Shown here: positions 8,451 to 17,361 of the stretch, one piece after another
Layout: each line of letters starts with the position of its first letter
Numbering within the stretch: position 1 is the stretch's first letter
IMG/VR virus record: IMGVR_UViG_2657245015_000002
Location: 1-17,361 of that record
From: a virus
Taxonomy: Duplodnaviria > Heunggongvirae > Uroviricota > Caudoviricetes
Reading direction: 5' to 3' (one strand)
Length of the DNA: 17,361 nucleotides
The notes under the pieces: model-generated
Database searches by the model: none
The model's input: the letters and a program-made list of their open reading frames with translations, nothing else
Told to the model about the DNA's origin: nothing
Program-made: the position numbers and the translations under genes

Positions 8451-9413
8451 CTAAATCAGAAAGTGACTCATATTAGATCTATAAATATCAGAATTTATCT
8501 TAATTTTGCTTATTGACTCAGATATTACATTCATCAGTGAATCATAGTCTTGACTAGTGCGCAAGGGATTAGCCAATTCATTATCAACAAGTTGTTGAGT
8601 TCCTTCGCAATTAAGTCCCAGTGGATTATCAGCCTTATGCGGTACAACAGCAAAAATAGGTCTTGCCGCTTTAATAGCAAAATCCGCCTGCGTCATTGTC
8701 CCACTATTTTTTGCTGCTTCGATTAGTATCGAAACTGCTGATAAACCTACCTGGATTCTGTTGCGTTGCACAAATGACTGCTTGAATGCAGGCCTCCCTA
8801 CAGGATACTCAGAAATCCAAGCCCCACCGTTAGATAAAATTTCATTTGCTAATCTAGCATTTTGTTTAGGCTTAGCGCTCTCTAAACCATGAGCTAATAC
8901 AGCAATTGTTTTAGCACCTGCCTTAAGAGTTGCCTTGTGTGCATTTGTATCAGTACCAATAGCTAGGCCGCTTACAATCACCACACCTCTTTCACAGATT
9001 TTCGTGGTAATTCTCTTCGTAATTTCTTCCCCTGCCATAGAAACTTCACGAGAACCAACAATTGCAACTCCTGGCATCTCACTAAGAATATTTACGTCCC
9101 CCTTCAAATATAACATTGCTGGGGGATTTGGCGTAATTGCTAAACAAATAGGGTATTTAGCATCTCCAAAAGGAATTGGAACAATCCCCAATGACAAATG
9201 CTTGCTCAAATAGTCTTCAGCATTATGCAATGACGCTATAGAAAAGGTGGATTTTAAAATCCCGGCTGAATTAACACACTCAACCAATTCATATTCATCG
9301 GAAATAATATGGAATGGAATATCGTTAAATAATTTAAGCAACCCTTGTTCTGATGCAAGTCTATCAACCTGTACCGATAGACCTAACAATATTTTGAATT
9401 GGGAAGGGTGCAT
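8451..9413 (-). CDS. DprA/Smf-like (Rossmann/SLOG-fold DNA-processing family) protein; cargo gene
   Basis: The central and C-terminal parts carry the DprA signature read directly from the translation: VAIVGSREVS...VVIVSGLAIGTDTNAHKATLKAG...TIAVLAHGLE...GGAWISEYPVGRPAFKQSFVQRNRIQVGLSAVSILIEAAKNSGTMTQADFAIKAARPIFAV. The start was set at the Met of MHPSQF (9413), which is preceded by GAGGAG and lies 4 nt after the upstream gene's stop. AT-rich relative to the phage core. Confidence 0.7.
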   Translation of the reverse strand: MHPSQFKILLGLSVQVDRLASEQGLLKLFNDIPFHIISDEYELVECVNSAGILKSTFSIASLHNAEDYLSKHLSLGIVPIPFGDAKYPICLAITPNPPAMLYLKGDVNILSEMPGVAIVGSREVSMAGEEITKRITTKICERGVVIVSGLAIGTDTNAHKATLKAGAKTIAVLAHGLESAKPKQNARLANEILSNGGAWISEYPVGRPAFKQSFVQRNRIQVGLSAVSILIEAAKNSGTMTQADFAIKAARPIFAVVPHKADNPLGLNCEGTQQLVDNELANPLRTSQDYDSLMNVISESISKIKINSDIYRSNMSHFLI

Positions 9414-9417
9414 TATT

Positions 9418-9987
9418 TCACTCCTCATAATTAGCTGTTTCTAGTAACGCCAGTGGCAATATTGTCTTTGCGCCTGCATATCTTAACAGATAATAGCACG
9501 CCGTCATACTCCCCCCAGTTGTAGTAACATCATCAATAAGGAGAATAACCTTATCAGCCACATTGGATGTAACTCCGATTGTTGACATATGATGTTCGAC
9601 AGAACGATCTCCGCCCCCCTTATGAGCACTCACTACTGTTGTTTTTCTCTGTAATGATTGGTTATATACAGCATTAGGAAATTTTTTCGCAATATCTTGC
9701 GCTATTTTTATTAAAGCTTGAGATACTTTTCCCTCAGCATGAGAAGGAACAATTGTTATCTCAAAGGGCACGTCGGTAAAAGCAACCCTACCAATCACAT
9801 AGCTTTGGAGGCTAGAAGTTAAAAGTTGGGTAAAAATATTAACAGCCTTTGCATACCCGGAATTTGAAGCGTCCTTCAAATCCATCATTGCCTTTGAAAG
9901 TCTATCCCCGGAACGAGGATTTCGCTCTCCTCGATATCGCCAAGGATGATATGTACCGCAAGAGTAAATTTTGATTGGCCCCATCAT
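9418..9987 (-). CDS. Phosphoribosyltransferase (type I PRTase)-like protein; cargo gene, first gene of a two-gene operon with the DprA-like gene
   Basis: 189 aa; C-terminal PRPP-binding-type motif VILLIDDVTTTGGSMTA (hydrophobic stretch-DD-x-x-TTGG-S/T) as in ComF/Apt-like PRTases; stop codon 4 nt upstream of the DprA-like start. Confidence 0.65.
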   Translation of the reverse strand: MMGPIKIYSCGTYHPWRYRGERNPRSGDRLSKAMMDLKDASNSGYAKAVNIFTQLLTSSLQSYVIGRVAFTDVPFEITIVPSHAEGKVSQALIKIAQDIAKKFPNAVYNQSLQRKTTVVSAHKGGGDRSVEHHMSTIGVTSNVADKVILLIDDVTTTGGSMTACYYLLRYAGAKTILPLALLETANYEE

Positions 9988-10475: not shown

Positions 10476-10901
10476 ATGAAAAGCTTTTACGTATTAATTT
10501 TAATTCTGGTTGCAAGCTTTGTTAGCGTCCCAGTTCAGGCGGTAACAGCTAAAAACTATGAGAAAGGAACTAAAGCTCAACAGAAATCAATATCTTACCT
10601 TTCATGTGCATTCTATGGCAGTAGCACACAATTAGATCCTAGCTACACGGAGCAAGTACCTACAGCCGATATCAAGATATTACAGAAAGCAGCTTACCAC
10701 GCTTACAACGATGCGCTCTCATACTTTGGCTATGAGGAACCAGATCACGAACAACGCATAATTGATTATGCTGAATTTGTGGCGTCGCAAGAAGCTGTGT
10801 TATGGGATAAGCCGGGAATGAATGGAAAGCAGGTAACACTAATTGCTCGTTCTCTCTACAATGAGAGTAACTGTAACTTGTTACTGGACTCAATTAAGTA
10901 G
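10476..10901 (+). CDS. Hypothetical secreted/periplasmic protein (cleavable signal peptide predicted); orphan cargo gene
   Basis: 141 aa; N-terminus MKSFYVLILILVASFVSVPVQA / VTAK looks like a Sec signal peptide with an AxA-like cleavage site; GAGGT Shine-Dalgarno 5-9 nt upstream; AT-rich; no family recognised. Confidence 0.55.
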   Translation: MKSFYVLILILVASFVSVPVQAVTAKNYEKGTKAQQKSISYLSCAFYGSSTQLDPSYTEQVPTADIKILQKAAYHAYNDALSYFGYEEPDHEQRIIDYAEFVASQEAVLWDKPGMNGKQVTLIARSLYNESNCNLLLDSIK

Positions 10902-11060
10902 GAAAAAGATGGTATTTTGCCCGTAGTTTCAACCTTAATCTCCGAACCTGTCGCAGAACGGGCGTTCACTCATCAAATAAACGCCACACCTAACGCCTCA
11001 CTGTACTCGTTGTTCAACCTTGCTGACGCCAGAATCAAGTTCAGACGCCAGCAACTTTTC

Positions 11061-11294
11061 TTAATGCAGCCAGCTGTCGTCTTCCCACACCTTCTGCATA
11101 ATCTTCATCACTTGTTTTCTTTCTTCGTCCAGTTGCAGTCCGGTCAGTTCCACACCGTTAGAGCTACCTTTGCGGATGCGAATTACCATTTTGGGATACA
11201 GGGGGCGCAGATTGCGGTAAAGCTCGGATTCAAGGGCGTCCAGGGTAGACTGGCTAATCTTCTGCTCTTTATCGATCATTATTTCAATGCGCAT
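11061..11294 (-). CDS. DinI-family protein (SOS-associated small regulator)
   Basis: The start was set at MRIEIMIDKEQ..., preceded by GAGGTG; the translation (MRIEIMIDK...LDALESELYRNLRPLYPKMVIRIRKGSSNGVELTGLQ...KQVMKIMQKVWEDDSWLH) follows the DinI pattern (MRIEV.I.K...L..EL.RR...FPD..V.VR...NN.L.V.G....K..I..ILQETWE). Confidence 0.7.
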   Translation of the reverse strand: MRIEIMIDKEQKISQSTLDALESELYRNLRPLYPKMVIRIRKGSSNGVELTGLQLDEERKQVMKIMQKVWEDDSWLH

Positions 11295-11304
11295 AAAGGT
11301 CACC

Positions 11305-11493
11305 TCAGCTGATGACATCCATTGAGCGGTTGTATTCGTGGGTTCTGATTTTTGCCATGAGTTCATCAGTCAATTCAGAAACCCACTGCAGAGCCAGCCC
11401 CTTCTCTTCATCACTACACTCACTAGCCGCTACAAGCTTAAGAAAAAAATCAATGCGCTGGAGCTTCAAAGACTCCAAAAAATAGTCCTGCAT
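11305..11493 (-). CDS. Small hypothetical protein (62 aa), first gene of the putative LexA-controlled operon
   Basis: Strong AGGAGG Shine-Dalgarno 5 nt upstream of the ATG; directly downstream of the LexA box; its stop lies 8 nt before the DinI-like start. No family recognised. Confidence 0.5.
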   Translation of the reverse strand: MQDYFLESLKLQRIDFFLKLVAASECSDEEKGLALQWVSELTDELMAKIRTHEYNRSMDVIS

Positions 11494-11533
11494 CTTTCCT
11501 CCTATGACACCAAAGTAATACTGTATATATAAC

Positions 11534-11553
11534 CACTGTTTATATTTACAGTA
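11534..11553. promoter_or_regulatory. LexA (SOS) box, CTGT-N8-ACAG
   Basis: caCTGTttatatttACAGta, with perfect CTGT...ACAG arms and an AT-rich 8-nt spacer (consensus TACTGTATATATATACAGTA); a second partial CTGTATATATAA lies at 11521-11532. Located about 45 bp upstream of the 62-aa ORF. Confidence 0.6.
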
Positions 11554-11645
11554 TATAATAATCTTACTGATGTAAAACGTTTTTTTACGTTCATCAGCCT
11601 GAAATGCCTGGTATTATTAAGAGCACGAATTGTTAACCCGCGTAA

Positions 11646-14060
11646 TTAATACAGGTTCCGCCACTTATCATCTTCCTGCAAACGCTGGTTCCGATAGAAG
11701 ATACGCAGGCCTGCTCCTGACGGAATACTGCCGCCGCGAAGGAGTAAATCGACCTCTTTCTCGCTGCCATCAAATCCTCTGGACTTCAGTTCATAGACGA
11801 GCTGCTGTCGCTGATGGTCTGTAATTCGCTGTTTGTAGTCTTTACGCCGTTTCGGTTTCACCAGGCGTAACCTTGCAGCCAGTTCCCGGCGCTCTTTTTT
11901 GCTCATACTGTGCAGGTATTCGTGCAACTCCTTGTCATCCATGCGGGTAATGTCCGTTCTGGTATCCCCATCAGCTGATTTGTCTTTCCCTTGTTGGTTC
12001 AAATTTTCAGCAAGGGGACAGTTATTGCCACGAGTCCAAGGGGCGCAAGCGCCCTGGTCGGCTGCCGCCTCCTGAACGTCAACGGCCTTACGAACCATTT
12101 TCCACTTCACTGCATGAGTGCAGATCTTGCCCTCTGCAATGGGTGACCAGATGCCATAAATACGAATACCGTGATCGCCATAGGCGGTTGGCTCTTCGTT
12201 GATTTCATAAGCGGTTCTGATGAGGTGATATTTGCGGGGAACCAGTACGCCGCCCTGCTTCATGATGTAGGTGGCAAAACAACCAGCATCAGCAGCAGCC
12301 AGAATGGCATCAAGACGCGGGTTATCCAGTACCGGCGCACCTGCTTTTTTGTCACCCTGTTGCCTTGCCGCCTGACCAGCCAGCAAGCGAAGTTCACGGT
12401 AAGCCTGACGTCCCGGAATACCAAAGAAGCGGAATTGCTGAACACGATGCAGAGACGCCCAGGCATTAACGTATTCAGCGTTATCACGCAGGGATTTACC
12501 CGTTTCCTTGCTGATCTCGCCAGCCAGACCACGCCCGTCAATGTTCTTACTGATGTATTTCGCGATGTAGCTTGTCGGCGTTCCTTTGCGCGGGTTTATC
12601 AGCTCAGATTTAAAGCGTGGACCAGTGTTATTACCCAGTTCCTCGCGGTCTTCACGGATGGCAAACTTACGCAACAATGCAGTAATGGCGCGGCGGTCTT
12701 TTTTGCGCATGAAACACAACAGGTGCCAGTGAACTGTACCGTCATGATGCGGCTCAGCCACCCGCACGCCATACCAGCGCAACCCGGCTTTGTGCATCGC
12801 CTTACGAAATGCAGCAAACATGCCGACCAGATAATCGCTGCTTTGTCTTACCGTCGCATTTGTCCAGGTTGGGTTTGGTCTGCCGTTATTGAGCGTGGAA
12901 TGGAAACGTGACGGACAGGTAATGGTGTAGAAAACGGCGCAGTCACCGCGCATTTCCGCGATAAGCTCCAGACCTTTAACACAGGCCATCATCTCATTGC
13001 GGCGGTGCGCCGGGTTGCTGCTGCTGGCGTTTACCACGTCTTCCATATCCAGCGTGTCGCCCTCTTCGTTCACCAGTTCATGAGAACGGAAAAACTCCAG
13101 TGACTTGCGGCGCTGCTCACGTTTATGCATCACGGCTTCATAGCTGACATAGGGAGATGCTTTTTTGCTGACCAGGCAGACAGCACGCAACTGCTCTTCC
13201 CGCCATTCGCAACGCATTTTCCATAATTTCCGGTACCACCAGTCGGCGCACAACATACGCGCCAGCGAACCCGGAATGAGTTCATAGGGCACGGGTTTAC
13301 GGCGGTTTCTTTTCCGACGGAGTTGCTCAAACGCAGGCGGGATGACATCCAGACGCAGGGTTTCCGCTGCCACCTTTTCCCATGTCTTGCGGATTTCTTC
13401 TGGCTTAACGTCATCGGTGGCATACAAATCACCACAAGCTGCATCAAGGCACATGCTCATATGCGCAGCGACAAGGGTAGACAGGCGTTTCACCTGATCC
13501 TGACTCATTTCAGGCAGAATCAGCAGGCCGTCCAGCCCTACATGGCTTGCCATAAAACGAAAAGATGCAGATAGCTGGCTGTCGCGTACATGCTCCAGTC
13601 GTTCCAGACATGGCTTAATCGTCTCACGTAAATAGCGGGAATAAGCCTTTGGCCTGCCCAGGCTGCTGAAGTATTCAATACGTTGCATCAGCGGCTTGCT
13701 GATATGGGAGGGCTGGGCGCTGACGTCTGCCAGAATGACCATGTCCGGGTTAAAACGCTGCTGCTCATGCGCCAACTTTGCCCGGCTAATGAGCTTATCC
13801 TGCTCCATTTCGCGTTGGACAGGATCACGGGATTCATTAAAGAAATAACGCTCCCAGACCTGATCACTCAGTGCCTCGCGGCGCAGTTGTTCCTGCTCGT
13901 TATCGGCAGCGTACAGAGTGATCAGGTTTGAAAGCGCAGAAACCGGCGCAACTTCCGCCGGGTCCAGATAAGGGTTAATGGCCTTTTTCGGGCTGTTCCA
14001 TGAGAACGATGCGGCAGCCTCGTTAAAGCCGCAGCAGTTGCTCATATCGGCATGGCTCAT
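11646..14060 (-). CDS. A: Replication initiation endonuclease (P2 gpA-like rolling-circle initiator)
   Basis: 804 aa; contains the HUH-type metal-binding motif ([13 protein letters not shown]) and tandem-tyrosine active-site region ([10 protein letters not shown]) typical of P2 A / phiX174 A-type initiators. Confidence 0.9.
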
Positions 14061-16763: not shown

Positions 16764-16845
16764 AAGTACCCAAATGGGGACAAAATTGATACTAGGATCG
16801 CAAAAGAGATATGTCAACATCAAAGTACCCAAATGAGATCAAAAT
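16764..16845. promoter_or_regulatory. Lysis-lysogeny switch region with two direct repeats (AAGTACCCAAATGrGrnCAAAAT); candidate Apl/CI binding sites
   Basis: Two 23-nt copies (16764-16786 and 16823-16845) identical at 20/23 positions and 59 bp apart, spanning the apl-cI divergent interval and the first codons of cI. Confidence 0.45.
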
Positions 16846-17290
16846 AAATCCCAATAAAGGTGGTAAGGCTGCGATTGAGCGATTAGTCGAAGCTTATGGC
16901 TTTACGACACGACAGGCTTTAGCTGATCACTTGGAAGTATCAAAAAGCACTCTGGCGAACAGGTATTTGCGGGATACGTTTCCTGCAGACTGGATAATCC
17001 AATGTGCTCTTGAAACAGGAACCTCACTGAAATGGTTAACCACCGGGCAAGGCCTTAAGCAAAGCTCGCTGACAGCAGCTACAGAAGAGCTTGCCAAGTT
17101 TCGCCTTACCGCAGGCAAAATGATTGAAGATGGTTCATATGTCTTCGATTCATCATTTCTTCCTGCAAATCTTTCATCACCAATTGTTATTCAGGATGGG
17201 CTCGTCACATACATTTGTGATCAAAAGTTGTGCTGCCAGCCAGAGTTGAAAATCTCACGCAGGATCTGCATTTCTTCGGCAAACCGCTGA
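16811..17290 (+). CDS. cI: 186-type CI repressor, apparently 3'-truncated (homology seems to end near 17225)
   Basis: The N-terminal HTH region (IERLVEAYGFTTRQALADHLEVSKSTLANRYLRDTFPADWIIQCALETGTSLKWLTTGQG) closely parallels 186 CI as I recall it. After ...LVTYICDQK the frame runs into GC-richer DNA that encodes the C-terminus of a convergent minus-strand ORF, and the product (159 aa) is shorter than 186 CI (about 190 aa). Confidence 0.65.
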   Translation: MSTSKYPNEIKINPNKGGKAAIERLVEAYGFTTRQALADHLEVSKSTLANRYLRDTFPADWIIQCALETGTSLKWLTTGQGLKQSSLTAATEELAKFRLTAGKMIEDGSYVFDSSFLPANLSSPIVIQDGLVTYICDQKLCCQPELKISRRICISSANR

Positions 17291-17361
17291 CGATTGATGC
17301 AGCGAATGGTCACCTTTTTGCGCACCTGATCCATCAGTTTTTTTAGCGCCGGAGAGAAAGT
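17221..17361 (-). CDS. 3' end (last 46 codons plus stop) of an unidentified minus-strand gene running off the window edge
   Basis: Minus-strand frame open from the window end to TGA at 17223-17221 (...KKLMDQVRKKVTIRCINRQRFAEEMQILREIFNSGWQHNF*); composition is GC-richer than the adjacent cI DNA. Below the size cutoff of the ORF track. Confidence 0.4.
   Translation of the reverse strand, partial: TFSPALKKLMDQVRKKVTIRCINRQRFAEEMQILREIFNSGWQHNF

Follow-up and report, generated by a model that had tools for sequence, protein, structure and literature searches.

A probable two-gene, tumA/tumB-type SOS operon beside replication gene A of a 186/Fels-2-type prophage

The window, by which we mean the whole stretch of 17,361 nucleotides that was analysed, carries a replication gene A of 804 amino acids on its minus strand (11646..14060; PF05840 Phage_GPA, E = 2e-127). 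Directly downstream of it, and on the same strand, lie two small genes. The first, ORF62, occupies 11305..11493, encodes a 62-amino-acid protein of the TumA antirepressor type and matches phrog_698 with E = 4e-38; the second, at 11061..11294, encodes a DinI-like protein of 77 amino acids, of the TumB type (PF06183, E = 5e-23). The module they form is bounded by gene A and by the cos-proximal cargo region of a P2/186-like prophage, with the portal and terminase genes further downstream, and the gene order around it is that of 186, Fels-2, PSP3 and DuoHS. Its neighbour, gene A, anchors it at the 186 position "A - p95 - tum"; the counterparts by position are p95/tum in 186, tumA/tumB in PSP3, STM2728/STM2726.1 in Fels-2 and ECHS_RS04495/ECHS_RS04500 in E. 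coli HS. A sequence-only reading had proposed a Tum-like, LexA-controlled antirepressor module between A and cos, at the place equivalent to that of p95 and tum in 186. The position, the boxes and both homologies bear this out: the 186 record has p95, a LexA site and tum at that place, and all the elements described in that reading were located on the minus strand where it had put them.

Each of the two genes has its own ribosome-binding site on the minus strand. That of ORF62, an AGGAGG at 11498..11503, stands 4 nt before the ATG at 11493 and is invariant in relatives; that of the DinI-like gene, a GAGGTG at 11306-11301, overlaps the stop codon of ORF62. The same reading was right about a 62-aa ORF with a strong AGGAGG just downstream of an SOS box, here at 11493..11305, and about a DinI-family ORF following it, and slightly off on the distance between them, which is 10 nt from the stop codon of ORF62 to the ATG of the next gene, rather than 8. 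The reading frames of the two ORFs differ, with 199 nt from start to start. A longer, 101-aa version of the second ORF, with its ATG at 11366, was set aside as an upstream extension overlapping ORF62: both TumB of PSP3 and STM2726.1 of Fels-2 start at the MRI... codon.

Two LexA boxes precede ORF62 on the minus strand. The distal one, TACTGTAAATATAAACAGTG, spans 11534..11553, with the core CTGT-N8-ACAG at 11536-11551, and has 3 mismatches to the LexA 20-mer consensus TACTGTATATATATACAGTA. The proximal one, CAGTGGTTATATATACAGTA, spans 11519..11538 and is imperfect: its core GTGG-N8-ACAG, at 11521-11536, reads CTGTATATATAACCAC on the plus strand, and the two cores have one base in common. Both had been noticed from the letters, as an SOS box and an overlapping partial box, and both stand. 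The distal core is the sole perfect match in the window, with 0.23 expected, and at least one copy of the bare 8-base core turns up in 40 of 200 shuffles, so that alone it is without significance; the extended site TACTGT-N8-ACAGT, on the other hand, occurs once in the window, at 11535-11553, and in none of the 200 shuffles. In each of the seven phages compared, the extended box precedes the homologous gene by 20-50 nt, and in 33 of 38 divergent viral loci a perfect core does so by 36-63 nt. Across 68 distinct related segments the distal box is nearly invariant, and the proximal box of the relatives keeps GTGG and ACAG around a variable spacer.

A candidate p95-like promoter can be drawn at 11548..11576, minus strand, with a -35 element TTTACA at 11576-11571, a 17-nt spacer and a -10 element TACTGT at 11553-11548, the six bases of which also open the LexA site. 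The assignment is made by analogy with the annotated p95 of 186, whose -10 (29044-29049) falls, according to the 186 record, at the very beginning of the LexA site (29044-29063); simple consensus scans of 10850-11700 for sigma-70 promoters and intrinsic terminators called none. Transcription is predicted to begin a few bases past 11548. With this promoter, the predicted LexA operator would overlap the promoter directly upstream of the module, and the dual box would lie between the -10 element and the ribosome-binding site, as in operators of the colicin type. On the gene A side, RNA folding of 11560-11650 (-18.4 kcal/mol, z = -2.3) gives a minus-strand hairpin at 11567..11597, CTGATGAACGT-A7-ACGTTTTACATCAG, followed by a U-rich stretch. 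This candidate terminator is kept in Fels-2 and DuoHS, its descending arm holds the candidate -35 element, and it may insulate the SOS operon against read-through from gene A. At the other end, a strong hairpin predicted by RNA folding at 11020..11054, minus strand, begins 7 nt past the stop codon of the DinI-like gene, at the position of t95a in 186; it is a candidate for a partial or bidirectional terminator, of uncertain function because it has no U-run on that strand. No Rfam family was detected anywhere in the window.

ORF62 is 98% identical to STM2728 of Fels-2, and 61 of its 62 residues (98%) are those of ECHS_RS04495, the tum gene of DuoHS. It has no Pfam family, is "hypothetical" in RefSeq, and phrog_698 is labelled "unknown function". 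BLASTP aligns ORF62 neither with 186 Tum nor with PSP3 TumA; since PSP3 TumA and 186 Tum likewise give no alignment with each other, the method is too weak for such short proteins. A profile search with ORF62 through 1.84 billion representative proteins returned 88 relatives, mostly of 45-90 aa. An HMM built from 40 of them finds residues 5-43 of 186 Tum at 33.9 bits (E = 4e-12 for 3 targets), gives a Yersinia "tum protein" 39.5 bits, and PSP3 TumA a marginal 3.6 bits. The comparison by hhalign of the ORF62 family with the family of the Tum N-terminal part was suggestive with shallow alignments of close homologues (probability 20.6%, P = 0.0011), and became convincing once the search of the representative library had added diverse relatives (probability 96.8%, E = 2e-10). 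These profiles make ORF62 a homologue of the N-terminal half of 186 Tum, the half that is not DinI-like; the link goes through profiles and intermediate sequences because BLASTP is blank and the PSP3 TumA score marginal. The sequence-only reading had offered an alignment to 186 Tum as a check of its proposal, and for ORF62 the similarity fails at the level of BLASTP and holds at the level of profiles. The AlphaFold2 model of ORF62 is a two-helix hairpin (pLDDT 89.6), for which a Foldseek search of the PDB returned generic helical hairpins only, with a best E of 0.69. In some lineages, TumA-like genes behind a LexA box are also found without a DinI gene.

The product of the second gene scores 81.5 bits against PF06183, for a cut-off of 24.2, and covers positions 1-63 of the 63 of the profile; its C-terminal part shows the conserved acidic motif WEDDSW. 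The two similarities that had been anticipated, to Tum and to E. coli DinI, are both found: the protein is 40% identical to residues 71-145 of 186 Tum, whose C-terminal part is DinI-like, and it matches E. coli DinI (1GHH) over its full length, residues 1-77, with E = 4e-6. To PSP3 TumB it is 77% identical.

Several known systems can be set beside this module. Phage 186 has it at the same genomic position, with a LexA site over the -10 element and a 186-type CI as target, and its Tum joins a DinI-like C-terminal part to an N-terminal part whose homology with ORF62 appears at the profile level only. The differences are that the 146-aa Tum fuses both parts in one polypeptide, though internal starts are annotated, that there is a single LexA box, and that orf97 comes next instead of the cargo of the window. 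According to Lemire et al. 2011 (PMC3121763), tum is split in two in Fels-2 and PSP3, the antirepressor being the upstream gene; in both, the gene pair follows A and is preceded by a LexA box, and Fels-2 has the same dual box in its operator. The PSP3 record annotates tumB, and tumA as "similar to 5' end 186 tum; UV induction of prophage". PSP3 differs in having a single LexA box, a TumA very divergent from ORF62, and both genes in one frame, with a stop codon and a single extra codon between them. In a microarray study, the operon STM2726-STM2727-STM2728 is among those altered by the mutagen MX (PMC2225428), in a list where one changed gene marks the whole operon and where no direction is given for this one. 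The antirepressors GfoA, GftA and FsoA of the Gifsy and Fels-1 prophages are also small, LexA-repressed and in an operon with a DinI homologue, and they induce without repressor cleavage (PMC3121763); contrary to the present case, dinI comes first, and the prophages are lambdoid, with another repressor family. A literature search on TumA/TumB returned unrelated papers only.

The closest system is DuoHS, the prophage of E. coli HS. Its promoter and operator DNA is 98% identical to that of the window, dual box included, and there too tum stands after gene A and 10 nt before a DinI-like gene of 77 aa, ECHS_RS04500; it differs in its other cargo genes downstream, in its integrase, and in a full-length CI that is just 55% identical to the CI type of the window phage. 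In DuoHS, an in-frame deletion of tum (ECHS_RS04495) blocks lysis and virion formation in mitomycin C, and lexA(Ind-) does likewise (Ortiz de Ora et al., Nat Microbiol 2025, PMC12055606). These data establish that tum is necessary, and not by which mechanism. Binding to CI, as cited in PMC3121763, was demonstrated for 186 Tum only (Shearwin et al. 1998).

Given the anatomy, the two homologies and the conservation observed here, we think it very probable that the region is the SOS operon, in a two-gene, tumA/tumB-type form, of a prophage of the 186/Fels-2 type (Peduoviridae). As long as the cell is undamaged, LexA would sit on an operator covering the -10 element and the start of the p95-like promoter just past gene A. 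DNA damage would activate RecA, LexA would cleave itself, and the promoter would fire, yielding a single transcript with a separate ribosome-binding site for each of two small proteins. The first, of 62 aa, would bind the 186-type CI, directly if this subfamily behaves as 186 Tum does, and stop it from binding DNA, which would throw the switch to lytic growth. The 77-aa protein would not be the inducer, and most likely tunes the SOS signal by binding RecA filaments.

A split tum operon of this kind is already known, ordinary and widespread, and as a discovery it carries little weight: the descriptions from Fels-2 and PSP3 date back two decades, and in 2025 a near-identical E. coli prophage was shown to need the 62-aa gene for its SOS induction. 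Its practical use is in annotation, the gene for the antirepressor being called "hypothetical" though the module is present in about one fifth of complete E. coli genomes. Together with an intact 186-type cI and int, the module would make a simple predictor of an SOS-inducible prophage, as opposed to a P2-like, non-inducible one.

Whether the predictor applies to the window itself depends on its repressor gene. A 186-type cI, the presumed target of the antirepressor, starts at 16811 on the plus strand with an HTH domain (PF07022), and is represented by its first 139 codons, 16811..17226. Over this fragment, 139 of 140 residues are identical to the full-length CI of E. coli SC516, and the CI of this prophage is 33% identical to 186 CI over 172 aa. 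This cI type is carried by E. coli SC516 and by phage vB_EcoM-813R9. The relatives have a CI of 198 aa; the copy in the window stops at codon 139, keeps 47 of the 101 positions of the CI C-terminal domain and, from 17227 on, is fused to the host gene yghO. Intact relatives adjoin rcdA, with int and a DUF4041 gene after cI, and the window contains no integrase side. The sequence-only reading had concluded that the module makes the prophage SOS-inducible: the conclusion holds for intact relatives, of which DuoHS is the example, and is doubtful for the copy in the window, which may be non-inducible because its cI breaks off at codon 139 and runs into yghO. The module is intact, and productive induction may nevertheless be lost.

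The prophage may be a deletion remnant or rearrangement, devoid of integrase, DUF4041 gene and attachment site, in which a module of intact sequence has been functionally orphaned: SOS induction of ORF62 could then lead to no productive induction, and the module would be passively carried or, at most, act in trans on the related CI of another prophage in the cell. We consider this a serious possibility, if somewhat short of an even one. In its favour are the end of the homology with relatives at 17226, with host yghO next, the loss of more than half of the CI C-terminal domain, the different surroundings of the intact relatives, and the antirepressor crosstalk in trans documented among Gifsy and Fels-1 prophages (PMC3121763). 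Against it, the cI::yghO junction was found neither by exact search of species-representative genomes nor in complete E. coli genomes, and it could be an assembly chimera; the remainder of the window, with A, the head genes and the module, looks intact; several complete genomes contain the 561-bp module at 100% identity; and the truncated CI might keep some activity. In any case the question bears on the context of this copy, and not on the nature of the module as a tumA/tumB-type operon.

The other alternatives concern that nature. The true effector might be the DinI-like protein, for instance via RecA or LexA, with ORF62 a leader ORF or an unrelated SOS-induced small protein: the DinI-like ORF is indeed the one with a Pfam family, and the 186 annotation has truncated, DinI-only Tum products that modulate SOS induction. 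We hold this to be very unlikely, as the in-frame deletion that abolishes DuoHS induction removes the 62-aa gene and leaves the DinI-like gene, ORF62 is homologous to the N-terminal half of a known antirepressor, TumA-like genes exist behind LexA boxes without DinI, and non-polar dinI deletions in Gifsy prophages have no significant effect on induction (PMC3121763). Even less credible is a fortuitous LexA-box match in an AT-rich intergenic region, with both genes read through from A in an early lytic transcript. The frequency of the bare core, present in 20% of shuffles, and the silence of the promoter scan would allow it, but it is already contradicted by the shuffles for the extended site, by the conservation of the box at the same place in phages whose flanking DNA cannot be aligned, by the hairpin between A and the operon, and by the effect of lexA(Ind-) on DuoHS.

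There remained the suggestion, made in the sequence-only reading beside that of a split or two-protein Tum, of a frameshifted tum. The ORF lengths, 62 + 77 = 139 aa, are close to the 146 aa of 186 Tum, and the frames differ with merely 10 nt between them; but the view of both ORFs as debris of a once-fused gene, a pseudogene born of a recent frameshift or nonsense mutation, is as improbable as the fortuitous box and already contradicted, since the 77-aa ORF lies exactly 10 nt downstream of ORF62 in 78 of 80 viral contigs, the layout recurs in Fels-2, DuoHS and 1,083 of 5,426 complete E. coli genomes, each ORF has its ribosome-binding site, most of the 88 relatives of ORF62 stand alone, a DinI gene is absent from some lineages, the 62-aa gene by itself is needed for induction in DuoHS, and even the 186 record has an internal GTG start that yields the DinI part separately. 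The related loci were gathered with an alignment plus three single divergent proteins. The split variant, with tumA/tumB of PSP3 as precedent and near-identity to Fels-2 and DuoHS, is the form that stands.

Within the tumA/tumB-type operon, a feature that sets it apart from those of 186 and PSP3 is the dual box, which resembles the colicin operators of ColE-type plasmids: these too have two 16-mers with one common base, the second starting with GTGG, and 32 of 37 bases are the same in the operators of a pore-forming colicin and of a tRNase colicin. About 990 plasmids match. The colicin operators control a bacteriocin instead of a prophage antirepressor, and in the examples their distal box is CTGT-N8-CCAG, where the window has the perfect CTGT-N8-ACAG; the resemblance may reflect common descent or convergence. 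Colicin dual boxes are described as taking two LexA dimers, so that repression is tight and induction late (PMC2994835, citing Lu & Chak 1996), and by analogy the operator of the window probably takes two dimers as well; in the literature searched, double LexA occupancy is reported for colicin operators, and for no tum operator.

These observations lead to a tentative conjecture in two linked parts, to which we give less than even credence. The tum operator of the Fels-2/DuoHS type would be a true double operator of the colicin type, binding two dimers on boxes that overlap by one base, and would need more damage to fire, and fire later, than the operators of 186 and PSP3 with their single box; and one TumA would serve prophages of different immunity by acting on the N-terminal DNA-binding domain of CI. 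If so, co-resident prophages of the Fels-2 type, and even the truncated CI of the window, would all answer to one antirepressor. Both parts are small leads, on induction thresholds and on prophage crosstalk. The second is consistent with the following contrast: TumA is nearly invariant, at least 98% identical, among prophages with different CIs, and the CIs paired with it are 69-77% identical in the N-terminal DNA-binding domain, as against 26-42% in the C-terminal domain.

The stretch of DNA studied here belongs to a P2/186-like (Peduoviridae) prophage, and Escherichia phage vB_EcoM-813R9 and Klebsiella phages KP12 and 4LV2017 are about 96% identical to it over some 80-84% of the window. The module next to its replication gene is an already described split tum SOS operon, of the tumA/tumB type, in a possibly defective prophage. 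The sequence-only reading had proposed a Tum-like module controlled by LexA: this is supported, for an operon type that was already known, and its coordinates hold, all elements being on the minus strand. Along that strand, replication gene A (14060..11646; PF05840, E = 2e-127) is separated from ORF62, the TumA-type ORF, by 152 nt that contain a hairpin predicted by RNA folding (11597..11567). Upstream of ORF62 we find a candidate promoter (-35 TTTACA, 17 nt, -10 TACTGT), the LexA site TACTGTAAATATAAACAGTG (11553..11534, core 11551..11536), a second, imperfect LexA site CAGTGGTTATATATACAGTA (11538..11519), whose core GTGG-N8-ACAG has one base in common with the first core, and an AGGAGG at 11503..11498. 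ORF62 itself (11493..11305, 62 amino acids) and the DinI-like ORF (11294..11061, 77 amino acids) are in different reading frames, a correction to the earlier description, and the gap between them is 10 nt instead of 8; it holds a GAGGTG ribosome-binding site that overlaps the ORF62 stop codon. A strong predicted hairpin follows at 11054..11020.

The second ORF had been read as similar to DinI and to the C-terminal part of Tum, and alignments to both confirm it. It belongs to the DinI family (PF06183, 81.5 bits for a cut-off of 24.2), and E. coli DinI (1GHH) aligns with it over its full length; it is 40% identical to residues 71-145 of 186 Tum, and 77% identical to PSP3 TumB. The profile phrog_189, which is as long as Tum, matches it at positions 71-148 of 151, in the C-terminal half.

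The case of ORF62 is more indirect. A Pfam scan assigns it no family, its PHROG (phrog_698) is labelled 'unknown function', and BLASTP finds no match to either 186 Tum or PSP3 TumA. Searching 1.84 billion representative proteins with a profile built from 31 close homologues yields 88 relatives, most of them stand-alone proteins of 45-90 amino acids. An HMM made from 40 intact members of this family scores 33.9 bits against residues 5-43 of 186 Tum (E = 4e-12, three targets), 39.5 bits against a Yersinia protein annotated 'tum protein', and a marginal 3.6 bits against PSP3 TumA; the profile-profile comparison with the family of the N-terminal half of 186 Tum is collinear over 43 columns (probability 96.8%, E = 2e-10). 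ORF62 and the non-DinI half of Tum are therefore homologues that have diverged, and the proposed likeness of ORF62 to Tum is recovered by profiles where BLASTP is negative. The AlphaFold2 model of ORF62 is a hairpin of two helices (2-23 and 28-61, pLDDT 89.6), for which a search of PDB structures returns no informative neighbour. One protein from the profile search, P0296 (1,205 amino acids), is matched by the TumA-family profile at six distinct places (E = 7.5e-7), perhaps because it is made of repeats with a chance likeness to the helical hairpin.

Are the two reading frames a frameshifted tum, or a two-protein variant of it? Both had been suggested. The DinI-like ORF lies exactly 10 nt downstream in 78 of the 80 viral contigs with an identical ORF62, and 1,083 of 5,426 complete E. 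coli genomes contain the 561-bp module, which rejects the frameshift artefact and bears out the two-protein variant. The module is labelled there 'hypothetical protein' and 'DinI-like family protein', so that an antirepressor gene present in that many genomes is a gap in RefSeq (PGAP) annotation. One source labels a homologue 'Levan regulatory protein'.

TumA-like genes that follow a LexA box but have no DinI gene are seen in ESSI-2-type phages and in two of three divergent branches that were sampled (viral loci L006, 2501-2713, L007, 2501-2668, and L091-L107); many of their proteins have a glycine-rich tail at the C-terminus whose last residues are ...GG(x)LQ. The conserved core is therefore a small antirepressor behind a LexA box, and DinI is an accessory, part of the same polypeptide in 186, a neighbouring gene in Fels-2 and PSP3, and missing elsewhere.

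The 8-base LexA core is not significant by itself, with 0.23 matches expected per window and a presence in 40 of 200 shuffles. The extended site TACTGT-N8-ACAGT is found once in the window and in none of 200 shuffles. It also stands 20-50 nt ahead of the homologous gene in each of the seven phages compared (the window, Fels-2, 186, PSP3, Yersinia vB_YenM_06.16-2, ESSI2_ev015 and Cronobacter ESSI-2), most of which cannot otherwise be aligned in the DNA flanking the box, and a perfect core stands 36-63 nt upstream in 33 of 38 viral loci from three divergent branches of the ORF62 family. This comparative support is stronger than that based on shuffles. In four loci of one TumA-like branch (L091-L094, IMG/VR contigs, about 90% identical to protein P0266), CTGT-N8-ACAG is absent from the 150 nt upstream, relaxed matching included, and these genes may be under different control.

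The window has two LexA sites; only one box is present in 186, PSP3, the Yersinia phage and both ESSI-2-type phages. Colicin operators have this tandem design: the 37 nt of the operator agree with those of a pore-forming colicin and a tRNase colicin at 32 of 37 bases, non-consensus GTGG included, and about 990 plasmids match it. Operators of the colicin kind bind two LexA dimers and are tightly repressed (PMC2994835). The distal box hardly varies across 68 distinct related segments, and the proximal box keeps GTGG and ACAG around a variable spacer, but this conservation is weak evidence because the sequences are closely related. We infer that LexA would occupy both sites.

Much of this is familiar from known phages. 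The 186 record annotates promoter p95 with a LexA site over its -10, and a tum gene with internal starts that give DinI-only products; in PSP3, tumA is annotated 'similar to 5' end 186 tum; UV induction of prophage', and tumB 'similar to dinI and 3' end of 186 tum'. Lemire et al. 2011 (PMC3121763) describe tum as split in two in both Fels-2 and PSP3, the antirepressor being the product of the upstream gene. STM2728 of Fels-2 is 98% identical to ORF62. The product of ECHS_RS04495, in the DuoHS prophage of E. coli HS, has 61 of 62 residues in common with ORF62, with upstream DNA 98% identical; Ortiz de Ora et al. (Nat Microbiol 2025, PMC12055606) refer to this gene as tum and removed it by an in-frame deletion. 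With Delta-tum, and likewise with lexA(Ind-), mitomycin C no longer induced lysis or virion foci of DuoHS. The operons altered in a microarray of mutagen-treated Salmonella include STM2726-STM2727-STM2728 (PMC2225428), a weak support because the call of one gene propagates to the whole operon.

TumA proteins of the window type, DuoHS and Fels-2 are at least 98% identical, yet their partner CIs differ substantially (pairs compared at L010 2612-3208, L131 4701-5270 and L132 2692-3324): the N-terminal DNA-binding (HTH) domains are 69-77% identical, the C-terminal domains 26-42%. This pattern is consistent with, and hints at, TumA binding the N-terminal domain of CI. Cross-talk between such prophages, with an antirepressor acting across immunity types, is possible.

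The CI of this prophage is of the 186 type (PF07022; its full-length relative and 186 CI share 33% identity). Its gene (16811-17361) retains only codons 1-139 of 198 and runs into host yghO from 17227, forming a chimeric ORF of 159 amino acids; on this side the window has no int, DUF4041 gene or att. In intact relatives, cI is followed by the DUF4041 gene and int, and the prophage lies beside rcdA. The cI-yghO junction occurs in none of the complete E. coli genomes and in none of the species-representative genomes; either a real deletion or rearrangement, or a chimera of the assembly, may account for it. In the first case the prophage would be grounded, its SOS module unable to bring about productive induction.

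The cargo hotspot that separates the tum operon from the portal gene is occupied on the minus strand by a ShosTA-type toxin-antitoxin defence pair (8451-9987): ShosA, a DprA-like protein of 325 amino acids (PADLOC ShosA, E = 1e-69; PF02481), and ShosT, a phosphoribosyltransferase of 189 amino acids (E = 3e-18). Relatives carry at this position a Hypoth_Ymh protein, a retron effector or orf97-like genes. A plus-strand ORF of 141 amino acids (10476-10901), convergent with the DinI-like gene, begins with a signal-peptide-like segment and matches no Pfam or PADLOC family; since relatives of the tum module cease to resemble the window near 10990, this ORF belongs to the variable cargo.
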